DNA of 63,659 nucleotides, filler included, from Dimargaris cristalligena (GCA_003614675.1; 13 parts of 13 records of this genome joined end to end with filler, not necessarily neighbours in it), one strand, 5' to 3'. Shown: positions 19,700 to 52,088, counted from the first letter of the whole stretch. The notes: generated by a model not told the origin, from the letters alone. Numbers and translations are program-made.

Positions 19700-20048
19700 T
19701 CCACCTTATTGTTAGCCATTATGTAGTTCCCCCTTCAGGACCTCCCCTTTGGAGGCACCCTCAGCGTATATATAACCGGGCTCCCCTTTGGGACCGGTTC
19801 ACCTCAGCTTATTCTTACCCCCGTAGTTTACCCCAATAAACTCTATATACGCTCACCCCCTAGTACTGACCAGTAAGTGTGCATCTAGTGCACGGACCTC
19901 ACCTACGTCCTACGCTTGCTTTATTCGGTTAGTCTTGTCGCCATCCCTAACACTAGTAGCCCGCTTGGCCGTGTCCAACGCCCCGCCTACTGTTAGAAGC
20001 CTACCCCCGAGACTCTTGACGGACTAAGAGTGGTTAACTTGGGCGACA
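19700..20048 (+). mobile_element. LTR family A, least mutated (CpG-rich) copy, cut by contig edge
   Basis: TATATATAA, AATAAA and terminal ...GGGCGACA; homologous to 33880-34213 and to the reverse copies. Confidence 0.85.
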
Positions 20049-20073
20049 GTCGGTAAATATTCTGGTAGTAATT

Positions 20074-20225
20074 TATGTAGGTGAAATGTGACCCAGCGGT
20101 AAAAAGTTGTAAGTATTACGTGTATGGAACAATAGGTGGGATATCTATTATTATTTTATACCAGTGGTCTTAACCCTATCTAATAGATTTTTCACATCAC
20201 TGCCTGGTTGAACCTTGCCTATATA
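20074..20225 (-). mobile_element. ~150-bp MITE-like element
   Basis: Imperfect terminal inverted repeats (TAGGTGAAAT...AACCTTGCCTA) in TA context; reverse complement aligns with 27513-27656. Confidence 0.75.
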
Positions 20226-20410
20226 AACACAGCATATATCCTATCCTTGGTAGTCATTACTTTTTGTTCTACATGCTAGGTATGCATTTCCAAAACCCTA
20301 CCCTTACCAGCATTTTCATATAGTATCTACCTACATGGTGATCTGTCTCTCTCCATATCTTTCTCTCTCCAAAACTTTATCCCCCTCCCTCACTTCCACC
20401 CTTGCCCAAT

Positions 20411-20618
20411 GGCCATATTCAGGCCTTCACCTGCACCAATGCAGGCAATTATCCTACTTAGTCACCCCCAACAGGGTGACTCACAGTATCCCTCATTTAT
20501 TTTGAGGGATTACATAGTCCACGACCCCCGGGCTGAGCTCACAGGTGCCGACCGGGGTCAAGCAAATCAACCAGCCTCCAGCTAAATCAAAGCTGGGAGG
20601 TGCCTGCCAAAGTGCAGG
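20411..20618. ncRNA. Candidate structured RNA element of seven hairpins, copy 1, family unknown
   Basis: Seven consecutive stem-loops; about 19 differences in 208 nt from copy 2, mostly in loops, linkers or CpG sites. Confidence 0.5.
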
Positions 20619-22485
20619 TTAAATGTATTATTATTGACTAATAAATATTTTTTTATAGTTTTGTAGATTTCGTTTTTAGTATTTTACTGGATGTAGCGCC
20701 CTTTTTATAATAATGTTTTCAGTTCAATCAATAAACCTCATCTATATTCTGATGTGTGTTTATTTAGAATTAAGTCTAGGATAAAGGTCGGTAACAAGGC
20801 AACTGGGCTGAATTATTACATACACCTACCATAATGCCACCATGGAGGTGTGAGTAATGGGGGGGGGGGGGCTGTGGACATATGTCTTTGTTTGTTTCAA
20901 TGTAAATAATATAATTGGTTTACTGAAATAGCTGCACTAACAATTTAACCACTGAATAAGGCTATACATGTTAGTCTGGATGGTATATTCAGATTGTTGT
21001 AGACTGACCGTGCTCTCAATTAGTCACATTTAATCTGGCGACAATAACTGTAAATACACTCTCCATCAATCTGTGAACATCTTCATTTTGACCTTTGGGT
21101 ATAATAATAGTTTGGTAGTCCATTGAACACCACTTAGTTGATTTTACAACCCCACTGGTTTTCCAATATTACATCTATCCCGGTGGCTAAGGTAAACACA
21201 AGTTCCCTACCGGTGGCTGACACTAGCCTTGCCAATTATGACAAGGCAGTATCCTCACCAGAGAACAATTTAGCCAAGAATGCAACTAACCAGGGGGCCG
21301 ACCATTCAGACACCCCAGTCATTGAAGAATGATTAACTGGGCTGCATTTGGTGGGGAAACAATTACATACAGTTCTCTGGGTTACAAGGCTAGCATTTCA
21401 ACCTCTACGTGATAGATTTTATCTGACTATAAAGGGTACTCGGTCAGGGAACTGATATCCTCTTAGTTTACTAGCGTTTATGCCACTCATACCCTCCATT
21501 ACTTATTTCATACTATTCATTTCTAATAAAAACCACTCCTTTCATCTGCTAATATATCATAAGCATTTGGTATGCCTACCTCCGATTGACAAAAGATCCT
21601 AATGACTCTTACACTCATTTGTGCTGGTTCCCTTTTGAAGGTAAGTACCGTTATTTCTAGCTAGGAATCCATTCAATTTAAGGGAGGTCTAGTATGTATA
21701 TGAGAGAGGTTTCAATCTGGCTGTATACAATGAAAGATATGCTAGATGGGGCAGGTGTTGCTGAATAACAAATAATAATACCACATGTATTAAACTGTAC
21801 CTAAATATTACTCCGGGATACCACCAACCTATTATACCAATTTTATGAAAGTATGGTACAACTACCCAACTATAAACCATCCTGAACTGTAATTTCCACC
21901 CCCAATCGCCAGGGGCACCGCCACTAAAGTGCAATATTAATATATAAATGAAAACGGGCTTCAATTTATATGACTTATCCTAATAGTAACTTGAATGGTC
22001 ATCAGTAATTCCCGGCCTGTCTATTGTTATTATCCAGTACCGAAGGACAGGAAGCTTGGTGCTTCTCATTAGGGGCGCAGCATTTGACCATGGCTACGGC
22101 TATGCTACGACTAGACTGTGAACATTTGCTCGATGGTTAAGCAGGTCCGGTGGGGTTTAACGGGAGGCATCGGCAATGTATTACAATGACTGACAGGTGG
22201 ATTCATCTTCCCCAAATGAGGGCTCCAGCGGGATACAATAAGGAGCCTAACTGGAATGGCCGGTCTGATCCTCCTCGGGTGAAACCAGGCCTGGAAGTTC
22301 AGAGAACGTTGCAGCATTGTTGTCAAGGCAGTCCTATTTTTTTAGAGAAGCCTCTTGCCAAAAGCCTCGGTCATAACCCTGTGTCCCAAGATTAGGCGCC
22401 GCCGGTAAAAATAACTCATACCGTTAAACCAGATAATAACGCCTAACCATAGTATAATAGCTATTGTAATGCAGATTCGTCAGCT

Positions 22486-22635
22486 GAACATGGCAGAAGT
22501 TCATCCAGGCTGTATAACGAATAATCCATTTGATGAGGTAAATATTACTGGTCAAAAGTTATTATCCCACATATTATCCTATACACATGTTGTGTAAAAT
22601 CTTATACAGTTGGGTTGAAGTTCACCCACATGTTC
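22486..22635 (+). mobile_element. MITE copy
   Basis: GAACATGGCAGAAGTTCATCCAGGCTGTATAA...TTATACAGTTGGGTTGAAGTTCACCCACATGTTC terminal inverted repeats. Confidence 0.8.
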
Positions 22636-22835
22636 AGGAAGACATTCAAATAAGACAAAAAAGGGAATACTGGGGCTTGGTTGCCATTCCATGGCCGATT
22701 CCTAATATGCACCGCCTGATTAAGGTATTGTATCCCGATTAATTATTTCGGAATAGCCGCATGATTGAACCCCACTATGAAGAGATCGCTAGGTTCCTGC
22801 ATGGTATCTGGTTGGTAAATTTTTTGGTAGTAATT

Positions 22836-22987
22836 CATATAGGTGAAATGTGACCCAGCAGTATAAGGCTGTAAGTATTACGTGTATGGAACAATAGGTG
22901 GGATATCTATTATTATTTTTTACCAGTGGTCTTAACCCTATCTAATAGATTTTTTACACCGCTGCCTGGTTGAACCTCGCCTATATA
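22836..22987 (-). mobile_element. MITE copy within the duplicated unit
   Basis: Near-identical to 20074-20225. Confidence 0.75.
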
Positions 22988-23173
22988 AATACAGCTGAAT
23001 TCTATCATCGGTAGCCATCACTTATCGTTCTACATGTTAGGTATGCTTTTCCAAACACACTGATTCCTACCAACATTCTCTCATATCATCTACCTACACG
23101 GTGATCTGTTCCCCTCCCTCTTTTTCTCTCGTCATAACTTTGTCCCCCTCCCTCACTTCCACCCTTGCCCAAT

Positions 23174-23381
23174 GGCCATATTCAGGCCTTCGCCTGCACC
23201 AATGCAGGCAAGTATTCTATTTAGTCACCCCCAACAGGGTGACTTGCAGTATCCCTCGTTTATTTTGAGGGATTACATAGTCCATGACTCCCGGGCTGAG
23301 CTCACAGGTGCAGACCGGGGTCAAGCAAATCAACCAGCCTCCCCTTAGCCCGAATCTGGGAGGTGCCTGCCGAAGTGCAGG
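23174..23381. ncRNA. Candidate structured RNA element of seven hairpins, copy 2
   Basis: Same length and same stems as copy 1. Confidence 0.5.
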
Positions 23382-23750
23382 TTAAATGATTGGTGCTTCC
23401 ATAATAAATATTCATATTGTATTTATATTCATATATATTTGAATGAGGCTGGATGTAGCACCCATTTTATATTCTGATTTCTATACATTTTATAAACTGT
23501 TTCCAGAGTCCAGTATATTTTTCTTGAGAACCACGTCTAGGATAAAGACCAGTAATAAGCTGATTGGGTTGTATTGTTATGTAAAGATGTTAATGCTGCT
23601 GAGGTGATATGAAGAATGGGGTGGGGGCTGTAGAAGAATGTCTTTGTTTGCTTTGATGGAAATTACTATATTGGCCTGTTATTACAGCTGAAACGCCCAA
23701 TTAAACTATATATGGAAGTGGGGGTGGTATCTTAGGATTTTTATAGGTCT

Positions 23751-24125: not shown

Positions 24126-24455
24126 GGTCTATTGTATTTTTGATTAGTCTTATTAAAACTAGTTCCAGTAACTGCGCATACTCTATGCATCAACCTGTAC
24201 ACATCTTCTTTCTGACTTCCTAGTAATATTATAAGACTGCCATACCTTTAAAAAATTTCTCTTATCTGTACCTTCCCATTGGTTTTCCACTGTCTACCTT
24301 ACTAACGGGCATGCATTTATAGGGTTTTGATATGAGGTAGCAGGTTTTACATGGATATATTTATAACCCTATGGTTTTCTTTATTAATAGTTTTTGGCCT
24401 ATCAATATATTAAATACAATATAACCTGTAGATGTACCTCTCTCTGACTTATTGC

Positions 24456-24539
24456 ATATGGGAGAAGTTCATCCAAGTTGTATAACGAAAAATCCATTAG
24501 ATTCGGCCAATATTACTAGTTAAAAATACATTTCCCATA
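24456..24539 (+). mobile_element. MITE copy cut by contig end
   Basis: Almost identical to 27513-27594. Confidence 0.8.
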
Positions 24540-24639: not shown

Positions 24640-25127
24640 GGGGGGTGAGTGTATATAGGGTTTATTGAGATAAACTAAGGGGTCAGAATAAGCTGAACCA
24701 TTAACCAGTCCCCATGGGGGGCCTGGTTATATATATGCAGGGGACTACTCCAAGGGAGGTCCCGAGGGGAAACTACATAACTAAGATAATAATAGGGAGG
24801 GCTGGGTGGTCCTCATATGAGCAGAGGCTTCCATGGGAACTGGAAGACACTAAGATCACCTAGGAGTGAGTAGTGCAAACTCCGGGGGGGTCTAGCCAGT
24901 AAGATGATATATATGATGTCCGGCCCCATTAGGACAGGGGGTACAATATGGCACTATACAGCCTGCTATGATGGCAATCATTAGCAGACAGATTAGGTCG
25001 GATTAGGAGGATAGACAATCATATAGTACCAGGTGTGATCATGGAATAGCTAATATGGTGCAATAGGACCTAATATAGTTAAATATCTAAGCTGGTCAGA
25101 TTAAGGTGTATTTAATGGGCTAACAAC
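24640..25127 (-). mobile_element. LTR family A copy (partial, diverged)
   Basis: GGGGGTGAGTGTATATAGGGTTTATTG...GAATAAGCTGA...GGAGGTCC matches 40082-40210. Confidence 0.75.
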
Positions 25128-27126: not shown

Positions 27127-28603
27127 ATGCTACTTAAAGTAATACCTCTTTTTTATGCATACGGCTCCGTTCAACAACGAATTTAATAATGCCCAAATCG
27201 GTCAAGTTGCCCAACCTATCTAACTTTCATGTTATACTGCAATTCTATTACGACTTTCCTCTAGTCCCTCGTCGGAGGCCTCATTGGTGCCGTATTAGCC
27301 ACCGGCCTTGTTGTTACACGCAAAGAGTTTGTCACCACTCAACTCTCAAACCAACAAATCGACGACCTCAAGATCTACGCCAGGTAAGAGCAACCACAGA
27401 GGTGCCTGTCAAGAAGTTTTACACATGTTTCAAGCGGGGATTGTTATTTGATCGACCAGCACGTATTTACACGTAGCGCCACTAGAATACTTCATTGTTC
27501 TACCTATTGTGAATATGGGAGAAATTCATCCAAGCCGTATAACGAAAAATCCATTAGATTCGGCCAATATTATAGTTAAAAATACATTTCCCATATATTT
27601 TCCCATACACGTATAATGTAAACCCTTATATAGCTGGGCCGAATTTCACCCATATATAATACAGAATAACCAATACCACTTTTATTTTCTTGCCTATAGA
27701 CTTGCGGCGATTTCGTACGATAACATTACCTCGTGGGACTGCGATGAATGTGCTAAAGTCGCTGATTCTACTTTGGTGGGCAATTTCCAGTCCAAGAACA
27801 AGCGCGCTGTAGGCTATGTGGCCATAAACAATGATATCAAGTCGGTTAGTATGGTTTTCCGCGGCACGGATAACATTAACCAGTATTTGACCGACCTGCA
27901 AATCAAGAAGAAGGATTGGCCCGACTGGGCTAAGGACAGTGCCGTCCACACCGGCTTTTTAGAGGCCTATGAGTCCGTGAGTGATTCCTTGTATACACAG
28001 GTTACCGGCCAGCTTGCAAAGCACCCTAGTCATAATCTAACTATATCGGGCCACTCCCTGGGGGCAGGTAGGTTGAACTACGCTATTATCTTATTAGACT
28101 ACCTATTAGCTTATGATCCGATTATTTTATTAGGCACTTAGTTGTTGATTGATAGTTACTGAAATGGATATGCTTTTTTATTTCAACTCTCTAATTACTT
28201 TCTGGTTCCCCTCACTCATAAACGTGCTTTTCGTTCAGCACTTGCCTCCCTGGCCGCGGTCGACTTTGTCCACCGCAACAAAACCCTGGCTAATATTATG
28301 CGAGTGGTGACGTTCGGGAAACCACGGGTTGGTAACCAGGAGTACGCTGATCATTACAACTCCCTCGACCTCGACAGCCTTTTCGTGGTTAACAAAGACG
28401 ACATTGTACCTCATTTGCCACCCAAAACTCTGGGATACCGCCATGAAAACGGCGAAAACTGGATAAAGCCGGACAGCAACAGCAACACAACCATTTCATG
28501 CCCCCAGGTAGACAACGATGCTAACCCCAACTGCTCGGCCAGCGTGAAGTTCCGAAACCTCAGTAGAAAGGATCACCACTGGGCTTGGAATGTTGAGATG
28601 TAA
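27127..28603 (+). CDS. Secreted class 3 lipase; exons 27127-27138, 27265-27383, 27700-28067, 28239-28603
   Basis: VFRGT, VHTGF, GHSLGA nucleophile elbow, TFGKPRVGN, DIVPHLPP, GYRH, C-terminal DH; GT-AG introns keep the frame. Confidence 0.93.
27513..27656 (+). mobile_element. MITE copy inside lipase intron 2
   Basis: ATATGGGAGAAATTCATCCAAGCCGTATAA...TATATAGCTGGGCCGAATTTCACCCATAT terminal inverted repeats. Confidence 0.85.
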
Positions 28604-29665: not shown

Positions 29666-29949
29666 CGTTTTTTGATTATTTTGTTTGATGACAACCTTTT
29701 CCTTAAATGATATGCACTTCAGTTGAACGATTATGAGAATAGCAGCATCTCAATATATAGGGTCTCTAGTTGTTGTTATGCCGGCGAATAAAGAAATCCC
29801 AGTTTTTATTAATAATATATCAAGAGGAAATAATCAGAGCCTACATTGTCTGGTGGCTTTACTGACTTAACTCATGGAAGTAGTTGAAGGGATTTTATCG
29901 AGTTGGTGTGTATGACTGTATAGAGCAGGTTAGTGAGAATGTAAAATAG

Positions 29950-30081
29950 CTATGGGAGATGTTCGACCAGGCTGTATAACGAAAATACCATCCAATTAGG
30001 AAAACATTACTTAATAAAAACCATTTTCCCATACACATATAGTTCAAAACCCTATACAGCTGCACTGAATTTCACCCCTAT
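29950..30081 (+). mobile_element. MITE copy
   Basis: TATGGGAGATGTTCGACCAGGCTGTATAACGAAAA...TATACAGCTGCACTGAATTTCACCCCTA. Confidence 0.8.
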
Positions 30082-33000
30082 TGGTTTTATCGGTTACGAT
30101 CATTTCCGAAATTATCTTTATAAGTGGCATATTCATTACCATCGACCCCAACAAAAGTATTCAGCGGCACCGCTAAAACTATGGGAAGAAAAGTCAGCCA
30201 CAGGCAAAATCCAGATCGATAGTAGATGTCGTTGGTGGTGAAGGACCCGTCGCTGGTGACAACGTGGTCACCTTAGACTTATAATTTCAGGTTTTGTAGT
30301 TCGTCTTTTAAGAAAAAAAACCATCGATTTTGCTCGTAAGACTGGTGCTAATAGCCCTAGGTGCGATCTCAAACAGAAGCCCAAGCCCGATTATGACACC
30401 TATTTTTTATAGCTACCATTCCTAAAGATTACATTGAAATAATATATATATAAAATATTCGAGGATATATTATTTAAGGGAATTATTTGTATATATCTTG
30501 GAGAAGGAAATAGTAAAAGTAAAGCAGAAACTAACCACGATTTCTCGTATACGCAAAGATTGATTTGGATCTAGGAGGTATATTCGACTTTCTCATATAG
30601 AAAAATCAATACCAATTATATTCACTGTTTAATCTCTCCTTTAGATACATTGTCGTCATAGTCTTCCCGCCGATTTCGCCTCCCAGTGGACACCGCCTTT
30701 ACGGGATAATCAAGAGATCAGGGCCTACTTCTCCCCATTTGGCAACATCACGCCAATTCTCCCTGACATAACTCTCTGTCACACACAGGGTTATCATACA
30801 AATATAGTTTACAGATGACTACAAAGCCTAAGAAGCTTCGAACAGAAAACCTCACTAATATAAACACAGGCCGATTAACTTTATGGTGTAGTTATTGGTT
30901 CTAGACCAATTTCGATCTATACAGGGAAGAGTATCATAATTAGGGACCACATAGCCCGAACACAGTGGATCATAGTCGACTGCCAAGTAGGTATACCTTA
31001 GAGTCATGATCAAACTGACAGTGCCAGCGGCCCAGTTATACATTTAGAAAAATGGCCTGGAATTTGACCAAAGCTGAAGTTGAACAGTGAGAATCACGAG
31101 TTTGCTGTTGGTGGCCAGTTTCTATAGGTATACCCACTATTATTCTTAAGATATCATTACACAATGTATAATTTTGGGGATAATGAAAGAATGGTGCCAA
31201 GAGCCGTCGAGTCAGGCGGATTTCCCCTAATATGGAATGTCTGTCTATAAATGGGCAAATGGCAATATGCAGTAATATTCATATTGCATAGCAACATGAA
31301 TCATTAATGGCAGAAGGCAGCTTTTGACATTCCGAAACAGTCCAAAATCCAGCAATGGCATTAAATCCTGCTGAATAGGGCTGTCTGTGGTTATATCTCG
31401 AAGGAACAACAACAATAACTTTATACATGGTCATTTTATCTTGATGAAGGGGGGGGGGGAGAATAGGAGGAATGTGACCAACAAGAAAATATCCATAAAT
31501 GAAAGAAACAAAGTTTGGAAGGGGGGAGGGGGGATAGTATGGTGTGCCTTGTTTTACATGAATCTAAGTTATTAGGACAATGTCAGTGGTACTCTTGACC
31601 GCTCTGGGCATGGGTGTGGTACCTATCAGGATAACGGGGTGCATCTACACACGGGGGAGGGTGCCCTCATTTATGAAATACTCATCTCTTTGGAATAAAC
31701 AGGCCCAGGACATCAGCACTAGTAAAGGTGCTAACCATGTAGCCTTCATATTGGGGCCTAGTTAGAAGGGCGAGCCCATTGTCAGGTCTGATCAGGAATA
31801 GACTGTACTATTGTTACTTAGTGTGCAAACTAAATCACATTTATTAATCCTACTGCTGTATTCCCTTTGTTGGTAAAGGGGATTCAGCATCAGAAGCAGA
31901 GCTATGGACAATAATGACTATTTGGGAGCGTAATGTCTGCCTTCCATATGGCCCAGGTCGGTGGCAAAGCCATGAGTTGACCTTCCCATATGAATTGTCC
32001 ACTGTAGTTTCTGCAGTGGGAATTTTTCGTTGGTTTTTGTTACACTGTTAGGATTAAGCGCCCATTTCCCTGGACTGGGTGATGTGTTTTCATCAGGTAT
32101 ATAACCTGTGGTATTTCCACCTCCTAAGTCTTTAACGACGAACACCATACTGCTGCAAATTCATAATAATATGGCATTTGTATCCTATTTTATATCCAAG
32201 AAGGGTCGGCCTAGTAGGGATTATCCTACTGCCGACCCGAGAGCACCAATTGTCAAGCCCATCAAGTGGGCATTCGATAAGGTAAGTATTGTATTTATTT
32301 TATTTATACTGTGAAATCTAGTTGGGCTGGCAATTGTATTTATACTCCTTCATTGATATATAATGATTTGAAGTATTATAAAAAACGCCGATTTCCCCTA
32401 TTTCATTATCAGACTTGACAATGGTTGCAGCAATAAAATTGTGGCGCCTCCATTCAATGCAAGTATAATGCCCGACTTTCATTATGCTGAATTATTAATG
32501 AATGACTTCCAAATGATATTCCAAGAAATCATTTTGGACTTACTGATTACTATGTAAGCCGATTTCTAACTATGTGCTTCTATGTTTGTTCCCTCTTTCC
32601 TATTATGATATCAATCTAGCTCAAGAAGATTTTTGGGCCACACAAATAAATGGCCCAACTGTGTCATTGGGATTCCCTTTGTCCCACCCCCATCCCTCTG
32701 CCTGTGACTTCACCAAGTCATCATGGCCAAGTTACCAGAGCCCACCCCCAACTACTCATCTTGACTTTTGGCCCAACCATGGTAGCTGTAACTACCCTGG
32801 GATATCCACTGCTTGTTACAGTTCTTTCTCACCGGCCCATACCCTGGCGTACTCTATAACACACCTTTTCTCCATCAGTTGATCAACCACTATCCTAGAG
32901 CTTGTTGGTACTGAACCACCAAGGGTTGCCTGGTAATAACCAGACATCCCATGAAACCGGGATTTAACTAGAAAACCACCAGCACCCACTCTTCCCATGG

Positions 33001-33629: not shown

Positions 33630-34213
33630 GACCATCAGGCCTTCTAATCTAACTTAATCTGGACACAATACTGTCTATCCCTATTAGGCCTTATAGTGCC
33701 ATATAACCTTCCCATGGTTACCCCTGGTACTATGGGATCACCCTATATCATATAACCATTCCCCTTCCAGATTCCTTATTTTGCACTAATCACTCCAGTG
33801 CTAATCCTAAGACTCTTCTAGCTACTATCAGATTTTACCAAGAGCTTATGGCCATCTGGTTAGCCTATTTATCTTACCCTAGTCTTAGTAGTACCCTTTT
33901 CTGGCGACCTCCCTCTGGAGTTTTCCCTGTGTATATATAACTGGGCCACATTTTGACTGATTTGAGCCCTTAGCTTATTATTACCCCCTGTTTACCCCTA
34001 TAAACTCTATATATACTCACCACCCTTGTATCAACTAGTAAGTGTGCTTACTACACATCCCTGGCTTATACCTATATCTTATAGCCTTTATTAGTTAGTA
34101 CCATGTCCCCCACCTAGTACTAAGACCTGCTTGGCCAAGTCCAAGCCCCATCTGCCATTAAAAGCCTATCCTCAGGGCTCTTAATGGACTAAGAGTGGTT
34201 AACCTGGGTAACA
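33630..34213 (+). mobile_element. LTR family A, near full-length solo copy (~585 bp)
   Basis: Ends ...GGACTAAGAGTGGTTAACCTGGGTAACA, aligning with 20048; no internal retroelement ORF follows. Confidence 0.85.
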
Positions 34214-35643: not shown

Positions 35644-38600
35644 ATGATGCTTAATCAGTCCTCTGTTGCCTCCACCGCGGCCTTGCGCTTACCTGTTGTC
35701 CCAGTGGACCACCAGCCCTCCATCAATTTACCCCTCGGCAAGCCCCGGGTCAATCTATCGGGCTATTCCGCCTGGGCCAGCGGTCATCTATTCCCTGCTA
35801 CGAACGAGTTCGTGCGAAACGACTTTGAACTCACTCATCGATTGGCCACGGCCATCATCCTAAGCAGGTACTATCGCCAGCCCGCGGTCGCCTTTGCCCA
35901 CTGGCGTGGTCAGTTCGGGCTACACACTCTCATTGAGCAGTCCCGTGAACCACTTCAGTTGGTTCTCGCCCAGGTGGACCCCGATGTCCCCATCTCCACC
36001 GCCATCCTGCACGACCATGCGCATGGTCATCCCCCTGATTCGCCTGGTCCAACAGTGGAGGTTCTGCTCCTCACTGATTTAGGTGACTCTAGTGTGACCC
36101 ACCCCATGTCCGAATCCAGTAGCAGTCACAGTCAGCCCAAGGAGGTTGAAGTCGATCCGCATATAGCGGATCTATTGGCCGGAAGCACTGCCCGCCTAAT
36201 TATAAGTTGTTCGTTAAACCAGGCGGGGTTCGCCCAGATCACGGTAACCTATGCCCGGGCTCAATACCGCGATTCAGCTGTAGCAGAATTCACTAGCCAG
36301 TTCCGAACTATCTGTTCGGCCGTCGCCCGGGCTCTGCAAGGTGGTCAGTCCACCCCTGTGCGCGATATTGCGTGGGTTAGTTACCAGGAACGAGCCCGCC
36401 TCTTGGATTTTTCCCAAATGACCAAACCAATCCAGGGAAACTATCGACCGTTCCACAATCTATTCAGCGACCGTGCCCAACGCTTTTCCAACCATCTTGC
36501 TTTGGTCCACGGCTGTGAGGAGTGGACCTACGCTCAGGTGGATTACGCCAGTTCGGAACTGGCCCGCATTCTAGTAGACGAATATGGGGCCCGTCCCGAA
36601 GTTCGGTTCGCACTGTTCATTCCTAAGTCAGTCGCCTATAATCTGGCTATTTTAGCTGTGTTCAAGTCAGGCGCCGCCTATGTACCTATCGACCCCGACT
36701 ATCCCGCTGATCGAATCCAGTTTGTCCTAGATGACAGCGGCGCTTCACTGGTAATTGCTGCGGAATCAGTTCTAGGTCGTTTACCAGACCAGCTCAAGTT
36801 GCCCACTGCGACCGTAGACCTATTTGCCCAACACCCAACTTTTAAGGAGCCTTCGGACTTCCTACCGTTCCCTTCATCACCCAACCATTTGGCATACGTT
36901 ATCTACACATCTGGTACTACTGGTCGTCCCAAAGGTGTCTTGGTCGAGCACCGGGGAGTGGCCAATATATCTACTGACCAGTTTTTAGGGGATGTCTATG
37001 GCCCAGGCCAGCGAGTCTACCAGACTGGATCCGTTGCCTTTGACGGCGTACTTGTGAGCTCCTTACGGGCTCTCTGCACCGGTAGTACGGTTGTGGTCGC
37101 AACTGACAACATGCTGGAAGACCTGCAGAATGTAAATATGGGGTTTCTAATGACCTCATTTCTATCCCGCTTGAGCCCCCAGGACGCTCCCGAAATGAAG
37201 GTTTTTTCATTTGGCGGAGAATCCTTCCTGCCGGAGCAGCTAGCTCGGTGGGCATCACATTGTGTTTTGGCCAACCATTATGGGCCGACGGAAACCACCG
37301 TTTACTGTAACGTAGCACTGGTTGGGGCCGAGGACGACATCACTTTCGGCAAACCTATCCACAACGTCTTCAATTTGGTCGTGGATGATGATCTGCAGTT
37401 AGTGCCAGTCGGGGCTCTTGGTGAGTTACTCATTGGTGGCGTGGGTGTGGCTCGGGGCTATCAAAACCTACCGGAGCTCACCGCTAAAAAGTTTATTCCC
37501 AACCCACTTGGCGAGGGCCGGGTATATCGCACCGGTGATTATGTCCGGTGGCTCCCTAACGGAACGCTCGAATTTATTGGTCGCATCGACAGCCAAGTCA
37601 AATTACGCGGGTACCGGATCGAGATTGAGGAGATCGAGAACGTGGCGAGCCAATTCCCCGGACTTAAGCAGTGTACCGCGGCCGTGGTTCAGGATACTTT
37701 AATTATTTACGCCAGCCCTGAAAACATCGACCCGACCGACCTATTAGATTGCTTAAGGGATCGACTCGCTAAGCAAATGGTACCTAAGCTGGTGGTACCG
37801 ATTGCGGACTTTCCATATACAGCCTCGGGTAAACTGGACCGCAAGTCTCTACCTTCAGTCGACCACTTGCTATCAAGTCAGACACTGTATTCCCCCACTA
37901 GATCCAATATCAACACTCCTCAAACTGATACAGAAGAAGAGCTTCGCCGAGTCTGGGGTCAGATTCTCCAGCTGGACCCCGACCGCATCAGTACCACTGA
38001 CCACTTTTTCCGCATCGGTGGTGACTCTATTTCGGCGATTTTACTGGTGTCCAAGGGACAACAGTTGGGGTATCAACTAACCGTGCCATTGATCTACCAG
38101 TACCCCGAGCTTCGCCTATTGGCTCAGAATACTGAAAAGATTACTGGCCACCAGGCCAATGTGAACGCCGCCTACCAGGAACAGGTTCAGGGTGAGGTGG
38201 CTTTGACACCTATCCAGCGCTGGTTTAGTGCCATTGGTCTTCGTAATCCCCACCACTTTAACCAGTCCTTTACCCTGAAGGTCAGTCCCAAAGTCAATTT
38301 ATCATTGGCGGCTCTTTCCGACGCCCTTGTGGCCCTGGCCAACCATCACGATATTCTCCGGGCCCGATTCCTGCCAGGTGATGGCAACCGGCCATGGGAC
38401 CAGACGATACCTACAGCCAGAGCCGTCCCTGCCGATTTTTTATTGTTGGAAGAAACGGTTTTGTCCGAAAACTATGCCAACTTTATCCTGCGGGTCCAGT
38501 CCGGCCTTAACCTTACTACAGGCCCTGTGTTGGCAGTTGCACTGATTCGTGACCCGGACAGTACGTCCCAATCCCGCCTGTTCATTACCATACACCACAT

Positions 38601-39309
38601 TCTGGTGGACCTGATCGCTTGGCGTATTCTGATTGAGGATTTAAATACACTGCTCCGAGGCGCCTCGCTTCCGCCGAAGACACTGCCTTTCCAGGCTTGG
38701 GCCTCCCAACTGGGTGACTATGCTGCCACTCTTTCGGCCGATATTTGGCCCACTCAGGTTGAGTCCGACAAGCCTATTCCCAATATCCGGGCCCTACTTC
38801 CACCTCCTGAATTGGATGTTAACCGTACCCAGGCTGCCCGCCTCACCACGTCTTTCGAATTCGACTCCGAATCCACGCACTCCCTACTGTTCCAATTGGC
38901 CCCGAAGCTGCGAGTCACTCCACGCGACCTACTTCTGGCCACCTTTACGCACGCCTTTGCCATGGCCATTGGGCTAGACCAGGTTACTTTTTGCATGGAG
39001 GGACACGGCCGTGAACCGTGGCTTCCTGATCAAGACATTACTCGCACCGTAGGTTGGTTTACCGCTCTCTATCCTCTTGTTCTTCGGGTTCATACTGACC
39101 AGTCCTTACTGGACCTGCTGCGCCACACTAAGGAGGCCCTGCAGCAAATCCCAATGAAGGGATTCCCCTATTCCTTATTGAAGTACACGTCTGGGGTTTC
39201 GATGGTAGAGCGGGTCAAATTGGAGGCCAAGACCCCATCCCGCCTAGACGTCCAGTTCAACTATTTCGGGCGGTTCAATAATACTGGTGTTGAACTAAGC
39301 GACGATTTT
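35644..39309 (+). CDS. Non-ribosomal peptide synthetase (degenerate C-like region, A, T, E), 3' truncated
   Basis: A domain: KSGAAYVPID, AYVIYTSGTTGRPKGV, NHYGPTE, GELLIGGVGVARGY, YRTGD, QVKLRGYRIE, SGKLDRK. T domain: FFRIGGDSI. E domain: LTPIQRWF, HHILVD, EGHGRE, RTVGWFT, FNYFG. Confidence 0.96.
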
Positions 39310-39895: not shown

Positions 39896-40485
39896 TGTTA
39901 CCCAGGTTCACTACTCTTAGTCTATTAAGAGTCCCAGGGATAGGCTTCTAATAGTAGGTGGGGCCTAGACTCAGCTAAGTAGGCTACTAGTATTAGGTAT
40001 GGGGTATAGTATTAACTAAATAAGGCTAAATAGTAGGAATAGGCAAGGGATATACAGTAAGTATACTTACTAGTCAGTATAAGGGGGTGAGTATATATAG
40101 AGTTTATTGGAGTAAACTGGGGGGTAAGAATAAGCTAAGAAATCTAACCAGTCCTAATAGGGCCTAATTATATATATATATATAGGGATAAATCTAGAGG
40201 GAGGTCCCAAGGGAAGCATATCACTAAGGCTATAGGATAAGTAAATAGGCTAACTAGATGGCTACTAGTATTTGGAAGACTCTGATGGTAGCTAGAAGAG
40301 TCTATGGATTAGCACTTGAGTAATTAATGTAAAGAGGTAGAGTCCAGAAGGGGAAAGGTTATATAATAATGGATAATCCCATAGTATTGGGGTAACCATA
40401 GGAAGTTTAATATAGTATTATATAGCCTAATATGGTCAGATATCTAAACTAGTGGGATTAAGTTAGATTAGATGGTCTAATAATA
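39896..40485 (-). mobile_element. LTR family A solo copy, heavily C-to-T/G-to-A mutated
   Basis: Starts TGTTACCCAGG...CTCTTAGTC; reverse complement of 33630-34213. Confidence 0.85.
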
Positions 40486-43235: not shown

Positions 43236-44319
43236 TATGTTAATACAGTGGGCTCCCAATGGAGACTATACCAAAATCACCAATAAAAGGAATATGATAT
43301 AGTTAAAGGGCAGTGGCAGCACGGTCATTAAAAAACTGGAGGGGTATAGGCTAATAGTTTACAGTGGTATTACGCTGCAACCCACTACAGACCATGGTGT
43401 TTGTATTCCTGTCAAGTGTAAAATGGGGAGAAGACTATCGGCACCACTGCCATATTTCGTTAATTTATTGAGATGAAGAATATGGTATGTTTATCCTAGA
43501 GTTGTGTTGCAGGCCATCGTTGTCACTGAACCGGGCAGGGAAAACCACTTGTCGAGTGGAACTTTGACTAGACAATGAAAGAAGCCGACATTGTTAAATC
43601 CCCAAGCAATGCAAATTTACTATCCACCTCATTTTTCTCAAAGCTGACTGACATTCCAGGGAATTCTGGCCAAAGGTAAAAGTTGAGTGTCCCTTGGTAT
43701 CTATAAGTTGCTCAGTCCTTCTTTTGTCTGGCTCATTTGCCAAAATTTCGCCCACCCCTTTAGTCCCTGGTGATCCGATAATTGAACCAAACCCCAGTTG
43801 AGATATGTATTGTCCTTACCCAGTGACCTTTAAACTACACTGGATTATAAAATATCAATGAATTAGATTCATAAACTGCAAAAATGAACTAAAAAAATAT
43901 AGCATCGATTATTCCCCAGGAGTTACCCACCTCAGTACTAAATCAACTGATCAGAGCTTATCTTCACAGATCCAACATGATACAGAGCATATTCTGACAT
44001 ATGGCCATCTCTTTTGTTGTTACAATATTGGGCAATATAAATAGTAATAAAATATAAATATAAAAGAATTAATACCCTCGGGTACTCAAAAGTAACTAAA
44101 GCATAATCAAACTTCCGCAGAAGTGCTATCTGGTGAATTCTTTAGCCTCGACTAAAAAGTTATTTTATTAATAAGATATTACACTGAGTATTTATACTAA
44201 AACTCAGGGATTATAAATNNNNNNNNNNNNNNNNNNNNNNNNNNNNNNNNNNNNNNNNNNNNTTAATTAATTAANNNNNNNNNNNNNNNNNNNNNNNNNN
44301 NNNNNNNNNNNNNNNNNNC

Positions 44320-45054
44320 ATCTCTTTTGTCTCGTCTGCACCTTCAAAAAACAACTCCTCAACAAATGCGTCGAATTGTTCAAAACATTGCAACTCCAGA
44401 TGTGATCGCCTTTCCTAAAAATGCCAATTCTTCAACCAAAAATCTTTTAGTTTTTAACGACATGTCGAACGACAGTTTATGGATCAATTCATCTATCCAG
44501 TCATCAATAAAAGAACAAATTATGAATTTACAAAGCACAGTTTTTAGACAATTCGTGTTGTGGTTCGCACGAATTATCCCATGTGCTCGTGTTCTAGTTC
44601 GCTCGACTTATCCCACCAATGTTTTTCAGTCTTTATCGCGTCTGTTGTTTCTTTTTTGTATTTAAGAAAATATCGATATCTTTCTATTTATATGTATTGT
44701 TCAAATAGAAATAGAAATAAATCACGAATGTTGCAGTCTGAATTTTTAGGTTCATGTATTTCATTTTTTCCAATGAGATGCTTTCGCAACACTCCTTCGC
44801 ATTCACAAATTCCGTTGGTCATTGCCACCTCCGATCCTACTAGACATGACCCCATGTATGTTTGCAAAAAAGATGATTATTCTGAATCTTTTGTTTACGC
44901 AAAATGACCAATATGCATCGATTTAATAACAAAGCCGACCTGTTTCGTCGACTGCGGACACGTAGGTTGCGCAAAATGTTTTCAAAAACTGTCAAAACTT
45001 CGTGAATGTCCTGTTTGCTGGACACATGGCTCAACCATAAAACTGTTTTTTTAA
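44320..45054 (+). pseudogene. C3HC4 RING-finger protein with a possible N-terminal zinc-deaminase domain, disrupted
   Basis: Frame 1 ends K*PICIDLITKPTCFVDCGHVGCAKCFQKLSKLRECPVCWTHGSTIKLFF*; TGA at 44905 occupies RING Cys1; further in-frame stops at 44416, 44455, 44545. Confidence 0.75.
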
Positions 45055-45203
45055 TGGATGTTTTTGTAAATAAGATCAAGGAAAATCGTTTGAGATGTTC
45101 TTTTCTTTCTTATAATCTTCATCTATGAAAGTTTTCAATATTTTTCAATACCACTTACAAAACTTTATAGAAACTTATAGAACTTTATAAAACTGAATAC
45201 AAA

Positions 45204-46083
45204 TCATATGCTCTCAAAAACAACACTCGATGTAAAAGCGGACAAAAACGAGTCAAGAAGGAAAGGAGTCTTGTCCATCTGTTGAAGATAGTAGTTTGCA
45301 TTAAAAATATTCTGGTATGTTATTAGATCGGGAACATCTGCGGGGTTATTATAGAGCAGAGGATATTGTGGACCAAGAATGTCTACAATCGCCGGCAAAG
45401 AGTTGATAACTATTGGAGTATTACGCGCAATGCACTCTAACAATGTGTTAATCGCAGCCGCATCAACCATGTCTAGAAAGACGACATTTTGGGACAACAA
45501 TTGATCATAGTCATCATCAGACAATTTGTTTGTTTTCGTTGGTGAAAAAGTTTCTCATTGCAAAGTTGTTGTCCACAAACTCTGTTGGATGAACCAATGC
45601 TACCACTGGTATGTTTGGAAAACCTCAGTTTGTCAGTTCGCATGTCCACCTTAATTGGAACTCATTGGAAAACACAAACAATCCTTTACAAGTTGGCAAT
45701 GATGATAAAAATTTCGGATTTTTCAAAAGATTCACGTTATTGTACTCTGAAAAAGTTGTATTGAACGTGTGGTGGTTAAAACCAATCCATGGAACTGTGT
45801 AAGGAATGAGAGGTGGGTTTAACCAATGAAATGTTCGGTCGATATATGTATCACACCAAATTTCATTGTCATCTTGCAATTGCTCCAATCCACTCATAAC
45901 ATACGGCCATCCACTTCGATGAAATCCTTGAAGGTAACTAACTTGATCCATGAATTTCAAATTTATTCCAACAGGAAATGCCATAATGTTAACGGTCTTC
46001 TTTCCTTATTGGTCCGAAAAGAAATCATGCACTATACGCGATCCCTGCGTTTTACATCCTTTTAGTATATGTGTGTTTGTCAT
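45204..46083 (-). pseudogene. Glycosyltransferase-like protein of a type I recall from giant viruses, disrupted
   Basis: FHRSGWPYV, PWIGFNHHT, CKGLFVFS, HPTE, YDQLLSQNVVFLDMVDAAAINTLLECIARNTPIVIN.LPA....LG..YPL; in-frame TGA at 45625, frameshift near 45520; start is either 46083 (with a TAA at 46006) or 45984. Confidence 0.65.
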
Positions 46084-46866
46084 TTACTCATATGCGGCTT
46101 CACCGATGACATTTCCAGGCGGTGAATATTCACATGCGTAAATTACGTTACTTAATAGTCCGTTTTCCGCTGCACAGCAACCAATTGATTTTGTTGTAGG
46201 CCAAACCATCTGTGTATAATGTCCAAATCTTTCGAAATTTGTAGTGTTAAATATTTCACCTGGCGAATAAAATTGAACTTCGTTGGCCCAATCTTCAATG
46301 GCAGATGAAAGATTAAACAATATTGGCGCTGTTCCCGCAATCTTGTAGAGATTCTCCCCGTATGGTCCACCGCTGTGCTTGAATGTGTTCATTTCGATCA
46401 AAAACAAAGTATAATTACATGCTTATTGTTCCAATAGTAAATCATAAGAAAGTGCAGCATGTTTTTGTGTCGCGGGAACATTCGCGCGGATCAAATTATG
46501 AAGAGCTAGAGCTGCAAGCCGATCAGATTGTGAGCTTGCCAAATGTGAAATGTTATCAAACGCTAATGTTGGGGACGGTCTTATCTTTGATAGTAAAGTT
46601 GAAGATGGACAAGCTTTAAACGTATGGTGTTTTTTTGTCGACGTTTTCTCTTTAGAATGCTTAACCGTTGTTTTACATTTTGAATGTTTTGTCTCCCTGT
46701 CAACTTCATAATCATGACAGTTTTTCCCAAAATTGCGATATTGGTTCACACATAAAAAATGTTCCTCTTCGTTGTGTTGCCATTTCTCAGAAAAACTTGC
46801 ATTTGTGGTGATAGTTAAGTATATTGTGTAAAAAAATAATACATTCGCAATAAATGTTTTCAACAT
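46084..46866 (-). pseudogene. Secreted CAP/SCP/PR-1 family protein with one in-frame stop
   Basis: Signal peptide; LALHNLIRA...LSYDLLLEQ*A...FKHSGGPYGENL...W..E...Y...GHYTQMVWPTTKSIGC...YACEYSPPGN; TAA at 46423. Confidence 0.88.
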
Positions 46867-46937
46867 ATTTACTGTTAAGATAAGTAAGTATAACCAGAAC
46901 TCTTTTATACAAATTATTTTGAATAGGTATAAAACCG

Positions 46938-47593
46938 TTTATCGATAAAAACTTTTAACATTAATATTCAATTTATGGGTGTCAACGTTCAACGAATGTG
47001 AACATCTTTTGCATTTGTGTTATTTTTATGTGATAATATTTGTTTATTGATCAAACGTTTTTCAAAGTGCATTTTGCAATCTCATCCAAAAAAACTAAGA
47101 GAATTCAAGAAAAAACACTGAGCTCGTACATAATTGGAATGTTGAAAAATTTAAATGTTTAAAAGATCGATTACTCGGTATGTTGAAAATTTGTTTATCG
47201 ATAAAACAGATTCGGATTGTTCAAGAAATTGAATTTCAAAATGTTGAACATCTTTTTATCGATTAAGCAGATTCGTAATATTGAATCTCGAAGAATTGAC
47301 GAAATGTTGAAGAAATTGAATGTTCGTAAATAATTAATACAGAAGATCTTGTATCTTGTCATGTCAAAGTAATAGACATAAATCGGTAGTAATTATTCGA
47401 TGACCGCAATCACATTTCTTGAACCGATCCTGTTCGACGAACAAAATCATAATCAATAAACAAAATTATAATCATATTCTATAAACAAAATTAGATAAGA
47501 TTGATACACAAAATTATGATCATAATCCATCAATGGTCATATTCGATTAAATTGCACATGTTTTTGAATATTCGATAATTGTTTATCGATAAA
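46938..47593. repeat. Dispersed palindrome TTTATCGATAAA and degenerate ~60-bp tandem repeats
   Basis: Exact at 46938, 47194, 47582; variants at 47043 and 47255. Confidence 0.85.
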
Positions 47594-47622
47594 ACATTTT
47601 CATATCGTATTTTGCAGTATCA

Positions 47623-49090
47623 TCAATTTGCAACCATAAACACATATCCGGATGCACCTGCTGCAGCCGCTGATGCAGAACCAACACTAGTCCCTGCTGA
47701 ACCACCGTTAGCAGTTACTGTTATCGCAGAAGATATTCCTTTGTAAATAACTATTGCAGCACCACCCCCTCCTCCTCCTCCTCCTCCGCACGACAGATTT
47801 GTTGTGGAACCTGTATAAGTCGCCGACGATCCATTTCCTCCGTTGGCTGTGATAGACCCAGTTCCGTTAATTACGTTTGCACATACTATCACGACGCCTC
47901 CACCTCCGCCGCCAGCTCCTGTTGAAATTGTCGTGGCCAACCCCAATGCAGCATAACCACTGCCTCCTCCTGAACCTCCTTGAATGTAACAATCTGTGTT
48001 AGAGTCTGGATTGGTATCGATAGACTGAAATCTTCCGTCAAGATAAGTTGGCATCATCGAAAATACGTACGGTCCACCATCAACAGCGGAAATTGAAATT
48101 ATTGTCCCACGAGCTCCGGGTGTCGTTCCCCCACCAGAACCCCCAACTCCTCCTAGACAAAAGTAAGTCACTGCGTTTGTCCCCGCTGTTCCATTTCCAG
48201 CCGTTGTCCTGCCAGCACCACCGACCGTACCGGGTCCTAAAAACGTCGCCCCTGCTGTGATTCCAGAAGTACCACCTGTGGTTCATGTTGTATTTCCACC
48301 ATTTGCCGATATAGAACCATTCAAAGTTAATGTTCCTGAACAGACGATTCTCCAGCCACCAGTAGTCAATGTAACACCACTGTTGATTGTCAAATTTGAA
48401 TAATACATATTTCTCCCCAACGTTGTATTTGAAGATATGACAACAGCTCCATCCGGCGAGGCGCCGATCCCTGGAAAAGAGACGGTAGGTATCGTTTCAG
48501 TCAACTTTACAACAATCAATGCACCCGAACCAGTAGAAGTCAAAGTCACGCACGAAAAATTTCCAATCAAAATAATCGTGGAACTGCTGTTTATCAACTC
48601 TCCGGACGCTGCGGCTATGGTCAAAGTATTCACATCTGTTGATATCTTTGTAAGAAGATAAGTTCGTCCTGTTGCTCCTGTTGCTGTTGGCAAAGTCACG
48701 GTAAATGCTCCACCTGAAGTGTTGCATGATATTATGTAATCTGTTTGTTGCACTGTGTAAGCCGCGGAGACAGATGTTACATTATGTGTCATACTGCCGT
48801 TGGCGACACTCAAATTTCCACCCACAAATACAGAACCTGTCATTCCAGCACCGCCAGAAACAATCAAAGCACCCGTTGCAGTGGACGTTGATGCCGTAGT
48901 GTTCAGCAAGCTTGCAGATGCAGCTGTAATATTGTTATTGACTCCTAGGCCTCCTGAAATTACCACTGCTCCTGTGGATAAAGAAGTTGAATTAGCGGTC
49001 CCCAAACACGAAATCTTGCCATCTGCCCTCCATTTTGCCACAATAGTGTTCGGATCGCCAGAAAGTGTTGTTCCATTGTTTAATCCCGAC
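47623..49090 (-). pseudogene. Gly/Thr/Ser-rich virion fibre-like protein, 5' truncated, one in-frame stop
   Basis: Repeats STSLSTGAVVISGGLGV and STSTATGALIVSGGAGM; YTVQQTDYIISCNTSGGAFTVTLP module; glycine-rich C-terminus; TGA at 48283 with the frame continuing TTGGTSGITAG... Confidence 0.8.
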
Positions 49091-49493
49091 NNNNNNNNNN
49101 NNNNNNNNNNNNNNNNNNNNNNNNNNNNNNNNNNTTAATTAATTAANNNNNNNNNNNNNNNNNNNNNNNNNNNNNNNNNNNNNNNNNNNNTCTTAGCAGA
49201 CTAAGAGTAGTTTACCTTGGTAATAAACTCTAAACTTATTATATATGCCCCAAACTACCACATTAAAGCAGCCATACTCCCTTTTCTTTTCGGATTCCTT
49301 CAAAAACTTAATTTTCTAACTGATTCTAAAAACATAAAATATAGGTTATCAATAGCCACCAAGCCATTGAAGTTCACGCATTTCACAATACTATAATTAT
49401 TTTTGATAAAACTTTAACTATCTTCATTAATATTTTCCTAGCCCTTTAGCAATTTTATTTTCGTGTTTCCGATGATACTATTCAGCATATATC

Positions 49494-50500
49494 ATGAGTT
49501 CTAACACTCCCGAGGCCATCCTATCGGTATCATCAAGTATCATCAAACCTGTCAAGTCGGGCCCCTTTATTGTGCCGCCGAAGTAGCCTAAACAAACCGC
49601 CAAAGTCGCTTTGCAGATCCCTAAGTCTATTACTTTGAAGGCGGAGTCATCCAGCTATAAAACCATACCCTAGCTGATCAACCGGGCCACCAAACCGGTT
49701 GTGCCTGAATAGGTATTTTTGCCTTCAGAAACATTATGTGAGGGGACTGCGACTTCAATGAATTGAAATACACTAAAGGCCAACCAGCCTAACCTTTCTA
49801 AAATACTTCCAAAAACTAGTCCGTCTCTGCCATCGAAAAACTAAATGGTTTCCTGGTAATTACCATTAGGCGTGAGCGGCAACAGCGAATCGGTCCTGTT
49901 TAGCCCGATTGTGTGCATGGCCAACTTAACGGATGAAGTCATTCTCATTGATGGTCAAGATATTTGCCGAGTGGCCTAGGGTGATTTACGCTCCCAGATC
50001 GCGTACATCAACCAGTCCTTTGTGACTTTCCTGGGCACTATTTACTACAATATCGCCTATGGTGCTGTCAACCGGGGCGAGTTAGCCTCTATAGACGAGG
50101 TGGTGGAGGCGGCCAAAGCCGTTAACTTATATGATACGATCATGGGGCGCGAGGATGGCTTTGACGCCAAACTCGATGGGAGTGGCAACAAGATGAGCGG
50201 TGGCGAGTTGCAGCGCATGGGAATTGCGCGGGCCCTGGTAAAAAAGTCACTCATCTTACTTTTGGATGAGGCCACGGCCGCCCTGGATACCGCCACTGAA
50301 ACGAAGATCATGGACTACATTCGTAACTCTAAGGAGTCGCGAACGACTGTTACAATCGCCCATAGGATTTCGACTATTATGGATGCCGACCAGATTGTGG
50401 TCCTGGGACACGGCAGGGTGGCCGAGCTTGGCATACATAATGAATTAGTGGCCAAGGGCGGCATTTATGCCGAAATGTGGGCCAATACCCAGATTAACAA
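49494..50500 (+). pseudogene. ABCB-type (ATM1/HMT1/MDR-like) ABC transporter nucleotide-binding-domain pseudogene fragment
   Basis: ILIDGQDICRVA*GDLRSQIAYINQ, MSGGELQRMGIARAL, LLLDEATAALD, IAHRIST; Walker A degenerate, no transmembrane domain, in-frame TAG at 49977. Confidence 0.85.
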
Positions 50501-51499
50501 TATAATATTTATATTTTTGCAAAAACAATCTCCTCAAGTTCATTGGCTATGCCTATACCTTTCATTTTTATTTGTATTATATATATATATTGATAATATG
50601 AGAGAGGCCCAGTCCAGCTGTATAATGCATATTGCACTTAGAAAAATCGACTGCAGAGGTTAAAAAGAACCCCGTGGCCTATTTTGGACTCTATATTTTA
50701 AACTTAACACTATCCATTTTTGTTGGATCTAAAGGTATAAGTTTTGGCTTTTATGGATGCGATGTAGGGTTACTTATATATTGACTGATGTTTTAACTTC
50801 TCCGACAGGCGCTGCACCCAAGATACATCCTTCAACAACTCAAATGTTTCCAGGAAACATACACCTCGTTAGGAAGACAGTGTACAAGAACCCCATTAGT
50901 GTGGTTAAGATAAAGGGAATCCTTCATGGATTACTGAGAATTGAAGGTTCAAAGGTTATGTGCATGAGGTGGGTGAATATTTTAGCTGGAAGAATGACCC
51001 TTGTTGTCATTTGAATGACGGCAATAAAATGTAAGGGGCAAAAAGGCTAGCTGATTCTCTCCTGTGTATAATATTCACTATAAGACATTCATGAATATAA
51101 GAAGGATAGGATATCCATTTCTAAATAGGTCCAACTAATTCGAAGCCTTTTATGCAAAGAGTAACAATGAATCTTTTATATATACGTCATGAATTGCTAT
51201 CTTTTATAACTGTAAAATGATAAAGTTAAGTGTATAATCACTGAGAAGTTGAAAAGAGAGACCAGCATAAATAAGGGAATGCAAAAATCATGTTACTGCA
51301 CAGGGGTGGAATTTTGTACAGTTGTATGAGGCTTTAAATGATATGGGTATGTGATAATAGGCAGGATATTTAGGAGAGAAATTCAATTGGGCTGTATTAT
51401 AGTATATAGCTAAGAGGGACTTGGGGACTGGAGGAGAGCTACCATGTGTGGATATAAGGGGGGGGGGGTTTGGGGGTCATATATAATAAGTTTAGAGTT

Positions 51500-52088
51500 T
51501 ATTACCAAGGTAAACTACTCTTAGTCTGCTAAGAGTCCCAAGGATAGGCTTTTAATAGTAGGTGAGGCTTAGACTTAGCCAAGTGGACTATTAGCATCAG
51601 GTATAGGGTAAAGTACTAACTAATAAAAGCTAAGTGGTAATTATATATAAGGGATATGCAGTAGTTATACTTACTAGTAAATATGGGTGGAGTAAATATA
51701 TATAGTATTTATTAGGAGAAAATTAAGAGTTGGAATATATTAAGGAATCCAACTGGTCCCACTAGGGCCCAGTTATATATATATAAGGACAACTCCAGAG
51801 GGAGGTCCTAAGGGAAGGATACCACTAAGGCTAGGGTATAGGTAAAAAGGCTAACCAGATAACTGTTAGTATCTGGAAGACTCTGCTGGTAACTGGAAGA
51901 GTTTAATGGATAAGCACTTAAGTAATAAGTGTATGTAAGTAAAGTCTAGAAGGGAAAGGGTTATATAATAAATGATAATCCCGTAGTACTGGGGGTGACT
52001 ATGGGAAGGCTTATATAGTACTATAATGCCTTATATAGTCAGATGTCTAAGCCAGTGGGATTAAGGCAGATAAAATAGTCCAATAATT
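51500..52088 (-). mobile_element. LTR family A solo copy, heavily mutated (terminal TG changed to TA)
   Basis: Colinear with 39896-40485 along its length. Confidence 0.85.

Follow-up and report, generated by a model that had tools for sequence, protein, structure and literature searches.

Family A and its copies in the window

We analysed a window of 63,659 bases from the Dimargaris cristalligena assembly (GCA_003614675.1), in which 13 contigs of 4.75-4.86 kb each, in falling order of length, are joined at 12 points by N44-TTAATTAATTAA-N44 spacers (4750-4849, 9705-9804 and so on). The window carries copies of a dispersed repeat of about 585 bases, family A, in which cytosines are lost by C-to-T change in a strongly context-dependent manner. 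The span that holds the compared copies, 19700-52088, crosses seven separate contigs. Because contigs are joined by spacers, distances between copies have no meaning, and features on either side of a spacer are not physically linked.

Self-BLAST, an nhmmer profile and MAFFT alignments defined the family, with a model length of 583 positions. The element starts with TGTCGCCC or TGTTACCC and ends with TTGACA or CTAACA (TGT...ACA ends). The following features belong to it:

19700..20048, minus strand: copy c5, CpG-rich (GC content 0.52, 17 CpGs), truncated by the contig end, with its 5' TGTCGCCC terminus at 20048
24640..25125, plus strand: copy c6, found by nhmmer and alignment, starting at the contig start, with model positions 187-580 at 24640-25015
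25014-25125, plus strand: partial tandem 3' piece of c6, ending CTAACA
33634..34213, minus strand: copy c7, full length, GC 0.42, CpG observed/expected ratio (o/e) 0.04
39896..40484, plus strand: copy c9, full length, GC 0.36, zero CpG, TpA o/e 1.77, CpA+TpG o/e 0.52
51500..52087, plus strand: copy c11, full length, GC 0.36, terminal TG changed to TA
5176..5306, plus strand: c2, a 3' fragment ending TTGACA
49191..49255, minus strand: inverted 65-base duplicate of 51468-51534 (the c11 start with its 5' flank), 97% identical, at the very start of c11's contig

The inverted duplicate is probably an amplification or assembly chimera and not biology. Pairwise identity among family A copies is 63-82%, with many transversions.

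Family A is very abundant and dispersed. When contigs of four sequencing runs were placed on 19700-22800 at 80% likeness, 1384-1865 pieces were recovered per run, concentrated on 19700-20115 and 22404-22715. Beyond 20048, unlike flanks were found in 26-42 contigs per run; since these flanks differ across contigs, position 20048 represents a genuine element end with many insertion sites. A separate scan of metagenomes with a 22-base motif returned a sole locus, which proved to be a chance match with only 23 bases in common with the window.

The original prediction treated family A as a long terminal repeat (LTR) family. Its TG...CA termini and its length of a few hundred bases agree with that assignment, but the remaining hallmarks were not recovered. 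We found no target-site duplication or matching flanks at c7, c9 or c11, and no primer-binding site or polypurine tract adjoining family A. Among the 80 open reading frames (ORFs) of at least 70 amino acids in the window, none gave a Pfam match to reverse transcriptase, integrase or gag, and retroelement domains were likewise absent from 149 of 159 ORFs of 38-69 amino acids, the ten outside the domain search being those over a second repeat, family C (22415-22742 and 29898-30272). Family A is most likely a solo LTR, although this assignment, based on the TGT...ACA ends alone, is unproven; decay at old solo LTRs may account for the missing target-site duplications.

Preferential mutation of CpG and CpA in family A

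All five changes originally quoted were found when the reverse complement of 19700-20048 was compared with 39896-40250: TGTCGCCC>TGTTACCC, GTCCGTCAAG>GTCTATTAAG, CTAACAGT>CTAATAGT, GGCCAAGCGGG>AGCTAAGTAGG and TAGTGTTAG>TAGTATTAG. The loss of the terminal TG at 51500 was also confirmed, as this copy begins TATTACC.

Compared with c5, copies c7, c9 and c11 showed per-site C>T frequencies of 0.56-0.72 at CpG and 0.36-0.55 at CpA, whereas CpC (0.14-0.22) and CpT (0.20-0.26) were hit less often; T>C changes, in the opposite direction, occurred at 0.03-0.25. None of the CpGs of c5 was kept as CG in c6, c7, c9 or c11 (0/17). At alignable sites, CG had become TA in 4/15 cases in c7, 9/15 in c9 and 7/15 in c11, and the double hits in c9 exceeded the number expected if the second hit had occurred at the rate of CpC/CpT (p=2e-4). 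A given site was often TG in one copy but CA or TA in others, an indication that CG was ancestral and that the hits were independent.

Because c7, c9 and c11 share ancestry, terminal-branch changes were counted separately, an event being scored when the target differed while at least three other copies agreed. Across all copies, C>T changes affected 13/30 CpA, 27/237 CpC and 29/219 CpT sites (CpA versus 56/456 for CpC and CpT combined, Fisher p=5e-5), with 0/2 at CpG, of which almost none remained. Under a strict local-alignment filter with c5 excluded, the counts were 10/22 at CpA, 13/128 at CpC and 10/132 at CpT, with T>C at 20/488 and no CpG sites on terminal branches; the CpA excess over CpC plus CpT (23/260) corresponded to a Fisher odds ratio of 8.6 (p=3e-5). 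The per-site frequencies and the terminal-branch counts agree on a directional CpG and CpA bias, and in family A the mutation rate at CpA is 4-5 times that at CpC/CpT.

Per-site rates were alike on both strands, with G>A at 8/72 and C>T at 5/35 in c7, and 6/68 and 5/32 in c9, as expected of a process that acts on double-stranded DNA. The apparent asymmetry of c11 (G>A 19/81 versus C>T 4/33) was non-significant after normalisation for G content (p=0.2).

Restriction of the CpA step to family A

Unique AT-rich non-coding DNA (GC 0.39) has o/e ratios of 1.05 for CpA/TpG, 1.04 for TpA and 0.57 for CpG, whereas family A shows 0.67-0.70, 1.65 and 0.20, respectively. Unique DNA thus has neither a CpA deficit nor a TpA excess. 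The proposed comparison of TpA between repeats and unique DNA bears out a difference, but the indices are already extreme in c5, where TpA/ApT is 2.46 and (CpA+TpG)/(ApC+GpT) is 0.66.

Two further repeat families served as internal controls:

20049..20918, plus strand: family B copy 1, sharing 80% identity with 22811-23674 and lying on c5's contig
22811..23674, plus strand: family B copy 2, forming a direct 870-base pair with copy 1
22490..22627, plus strand: family C, about 170 bases, high copy, CpGs kept
24453-24539, 27510-27662, 29951-30081 and 53867-53948 (minus strand): further family C copies
20068-20193 and 22837-22915, both minus strand: family C-related ends

The two family B copies differ by 102 transitions and 89 transversions, with flat context rates of 0.09-0.14. 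Their dinucleotide composition (CpG o/e 0.29-0.39, CpA/TpG 1.13-1.14) is the classical methyl-CpG pattern. Family C is SINE- or MITE-like (short interspersed nuclear element; miniature inverted-repeat transposable element), has seven copies in the window and retains conserved CpGs (TAACGAA, ACACGTA). Its background divergence equals that of family A, with T>C at 12/286 (20/488 in family A) and CpC/CpT changes at 9/79. CpA>TpA changes, in contrast, affected 4/44 sites in family C and 10/22 in family A (p=0.001), and only 1/11 family C CpGs had changed. Since families B and C and unique DNA lack the bias, the CpA step is specific to family A within the window.

The three families also adjoin or resemble one another at several points. 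Copy c5 adjoins the left edge of family B within 3 bases, the first ~130 bases of family B are related, in inverted orientation, to family C, and some run contigs have family C immediately adjoining the end of family A (junction 20048>22497). Within the family B pair, near-perfect blocks of more than 100 bases alternate with scrambled blocks, a pattern that suggests constraint or gene conversion.

Host affinity and gene content

The gene content of the window is eukaryotic and fungal, comprising a DEAD helicase, a Sec7 protein, a PH-domain protein and an MABP1/WDR62-like WD40 protein, together with a non-ribosomal peptide synthetase (NRPS) module, FMO, ArAE_2_N, a lipase, Med10 and Rpb7. The gene-bearing parts have a GC content of 0.54, and the AT-rich remainder 0.39-0.42.

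The best named match of the helicase was Dispira parvispora, at 25% identity, and that of the Sec7 protein was Coemansia interrupta, followed by a chytrid. For the WD40 protein (14759-16129), the best named relatives belonged to Glomeromycotina and Mortierellomycotina (Racocetra, Linnemannia and Actinomortierella), followed by animals; Dikarya were absent from its named matches above the first bacterial ones. No match list from the helicase, Sec7 and WD40 searches was headed by a Dikarya protein, in a word-limited search with low identities. These affinities point to a divergent zygomycete-grade fungus, most likely of Kickxellomycotina (Zoopagomycota). The proviso of a zoopagomycete, non-ascomycete host, on which the original interpretation depended, is thereby borne out, as the best named matches fall in Kickxellomycotina and other zygomycetes and not in Ascomycota, albeit at low identities.

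The NRPS module (AMP-binding, PP-binding and condensation domains) forms a long intron-free ORF at 35518-39309 that runs off its contig; mycoparasitic Dimargaritales are enriched in secondary-metabolite genes among zygomycetes, according to a review (PMC10386755). Contig 10 (44319-49090) has a dinucleotide signature apart from all other contigs, with CpG o/e of 1.0-1.2, TpA of 0.6-0.7 and no CC/GG excess. Its ORFs lie on the same strand, densely packed and without introns, and include a CAP-domain ORF at 46087-46422. A single weak PHROG match was obtained at 47626-48282 (E=2.7e-6), and atlas scores against phage (tail) proteins reached at most 0.83, giving weak leads only. This contig may be DNA from another organism, bacterial or phage, within the assembly.

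Methylation-linked decay as the favoured explanation

The observed bias, directional, confined to family A and located in a non-ascomycete genome, would be accounted for by slow deamination following CpG and CpA methylation targeted to family A, an explanation to which we give about an even chance. It takes up the second option of the original prediction, non-CG methylation. After insertion, copies would lose cytosine by C>T change on both strands, at rates in the order CpG > CpA >> CpC and CpT; with such rates CpG would therefore end as TpA, with TpA acting as the sink. The cytosines of family A would have been methylated specifically in CpG and CpA contexts, presumably by a methyltransferase of the DNMT1/Dim-2 class with a preference for a 3' purine, G over A. 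Cytosine methyltransferases are typically specific for the 3' neighbour. The process would be a gradual decay instead of a burst, because the C>T changes occur together with transversions and A:T>G:C changes, and its chemistry would be shared with repeat-induced point mutation (RIP) as well as with the Dim2-dependent "mitotic RIP-like" process.

Passive methyl-CpG decay has in common with family A the complete CpG loss in old copies, and the CpG deficit with CpA/TpG excess of family B and bulk non-coding DNA has this form. It leaves unexplained the elevated CpA>TpA rate relative to CpC/CpT and the CG sites that end as TA.

The nearest tested precedent is the Dim2-dependent CA>TA change in transposons of Zymoseptoria tritici (PMC8016269). 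There, Dim2 promotes CA>TA in transposons during mitosis, so that meiosis is not needed, and the methyltransferase prefers CG and CA; element-restricted, gradual C>T change at CpA is common to both systems. The Zymoseptoria mutation has been linked to the Dim2 enzyme, whereas family A is known from sequence alone. Early-diverging fungi are stated to possess Dim-2 enzymes (PMC7862722, with reference to Bewick 2019).

Several observations weigh against a methylation-linked decay. In Zymoseptoria, more than 98% of the C>T changes reported in that text fall at CA and CG is spared (PMC8016269), whereas in family A CpG was lost first and completely. A Dim2-type process mutates CA but not CG; here CpG is the most affected context, and the 3'-purine preference is the sole Dim2-type feature that fits. 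A review reports very little 5-methylcytosine in early-diverging fungi (PMC13297926). Family B is CpG-depleted with excess CpA/TpG, so that, if it was methylated, the CpA step was not operating there. The TpA richness may be partly intrinsic to family A, or c5 itself may be partly mutated. The sample, finally, consists of 5-7 copies of a single family, with just 22-30 CpA opportunities on terminal branches.

Comparison with RIP

The original prediction went further and proposed RIP-like hypermutation. A homology- or repeat-sensing process, premeiotic or not, would in that case deaminate cytosine at CpG and CpA in duplicated DNA longer than some threshold, with subsequent neutral decay on top. 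We consider this rather unlikely. Family A does have a target preference of the RIP type (CpA, or CpG plus CpA), and its dual CpG-over-CpA preference resembles that of the MATE repeats of Aspergillus nidulans, in which C>T changes fall most at CpG, then at CpA, with TpA as the end product, as set out in the sections cited from PMC2621366. The 585-base family A was hit and the 170-base family C spared, which fits the RIP threshold of ~400 bp given in the same source. The composite RIP index exceeded 1 in 15/586 scanned windows, of which 11 fell within family A, and c11 carries 13 consecutive G>A changes.

The mutation spectrum, however, argues against this proposal. RIP produces almost exclusively C:G>T:A transitions, whereas the ratio of transitions to transversions was ~2 in all 13 pairwise family A comparisons, and C:G>T:A accounted for only 24-69% of polarised changes (c9 11/16, c11 23/42, c7 13/32, c6 12/51). 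The RIPCAL-type tabulation that had been suggested did reproduce the CpA bias on the window copies, but CpA dominance against c5 was only 0.30-0.40, within the low-RIP band of less than 0.5 described in PMC2621366 (cited section). The composite index scored highest on c5, and the RIPCAL authors deem such indices unreliable in that section (PMC2621366); for these two reasons we rejected RIP indices as evidence. The lack of significant strand asymmetry in c11 also stands against RIP.

The choice of targets gives a mixed picture with regard to RIP. Relative to a requirement for duplicated DNA of ~400 bp at 80% identity, the sparing of unique DNA and of family C (170 bases) is as expected, but the linked 870-base family B duplicate, which would be an ideal target, was spared too. 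In run X1, 728/1717 placed pieces resembled the reference contig at 95% or more (families A and C not separated, and contig depth not being copy number), so little-diverged copies seem to persist. Such pieces may point to a large subfamily that has diverged little and kept its CpGs, which an efficient RIP process would not have left in place. A kingdom-wide k-mer screen of 1,239 species (PMC12543289) confined RIP-like signatures to Ascomycota; it dropped scaffolds below 50 kb, a cut-off that may have excluded fragmentary assemblies like that of D. cristalligena.

The non-dominance of transitions, the low CpA dominance, the spared linked duplicate and the non-ascomycete host together set family A apart from A. 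nidulans RIP. The signature is RIP-like in its CpG/CpA context, and the status of RIP-like hypermutation is not shown for family A. The observation behind the original prediction is thus confirmed and its interpretation partly supported: the term "hypermutation" does not suit the spectrum, and "repeat-directed" is not supported, given the absence of bias from the 870-bp duplicate and the high-copy 170-bp repeat on the same contigs.

Other explanations

Neutral AT-biased mutation across the whole genome, subject to neighbour effects, under which c5 is young and the old copies are drifting towards the non-coding equilibrium, appears unlikely. Such drift would be in keeping with the AT-rich, CpG-poor non-coding DNA of this genome, with the similar GC content of the old copies (0.36-0.42) and with their age, as judged from their low pairwise identity and many transversions. 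General AT drift is nevertheless rejected, because family C, at equal divergence, and unique DNA are without CpA bias; family C keeps its CpGs, the CpA/TpG and TpA ratios of unique DNA differ from those of family A, and family B has no context bias.

It is quite improbable that the copies were born different, whether through diverged master lineages or subfamilies or through APOBEC-like editing of minus-strand cDNA before integration. Raw plus-strand counts of G>A do exceed those of C>T (c11 19 versus 4, c6 9 versus 3), and loose ends in run contigs suggest several subfamilies. Once the G-rich strand is normalised, however, the asymmetry is non-significant (p=0.2 to 1.0), which led us to reject an APOBEC-like strand bias, and plus-strand C>T changes are also present. 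Known AID/APOBEC enzymes recognise the base 5' of the target cytosine and not the base 3' of it, which clashes with the 3'-neighbour bias seen here. The ORFs searched in the window, moreover, held no remnant of reverse transcriptase, integrase or gag, and retroelement status is unproven.

An artefact of alignment, assembly or amplification might be suggested by the fragmentary assembly (contigs ~4.8 kb), by the 65-base inverted copy with which one contig opens and by the proneness of AT-rich repeats with TATATA runs to misalignment. It is very improbable, given that the bias was stronger under the strict local-alignment filter, that the quoted examples sit within well-aligned blocks and that three other runs, which come from two studies, have contigs differing from the unique part of contig 5 at only 0-1 positions.

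Relation to reported systems and significance

Methylation-linked decay of family A, the explanation favoured here, can be set beside reports of context-specific C>T change outside Ascomycota. In Pucciniomycotina such as Microbotryum, RIP-like C>T change in transposons has likewise been recognised from alignments alone; its target is TpCpG without a CpA effect, unlike family A, and a non-CpG excess was not found in Agaricomycotina or Ustilaginomycotina, as far as the cited part of PMC3318451 reports. In Entomophthorales, a group that shares its phylum with the probable host of family A, a composite-RIP-index signal covers 24.2% of the Zoophthora radicans genome (PMC11105155, relevant section). 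The same eLife paper states, with major caveats, that RIP "may be active outside of Dikarya" (PMC11105155). The phenomenon can therefore not be called undescribed, as originally claimed, since such a signal in Zoopagomycota is already in print with caveats. The Entomophthorales claim is based on window indices only, whereas family A offers an alignment-based, polarised test with internal controls, in one family within 63 kb.

In the literature consulted, we found no alignment-based, controlled CpA>TpA excess for a Kickxellomycotina-like fungus, although the idea is already in print for the phylum; the terms "RIP" and "repeat-induced" do not occur in the zygomycete genome review PMC10386755. 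A broader proposal, that Kickxellomycotina possess an element-directed C>T mutagenic defence with CpG preferred to CpA, which leaves short (170-base) repeats and unique DNA untouched and employs an enzyme that is not necessarily RID, remains doubtful in our judgement.

The family A signal is a good lead with a small data basis. If the proposed defence is real, transposable element-directed C>T mutagenesis would either predate Dikarya or have arisen twice. Family A provides a concrete test case for non-CG methylation and RIP-like mutagenesis in zygomycete lineages.

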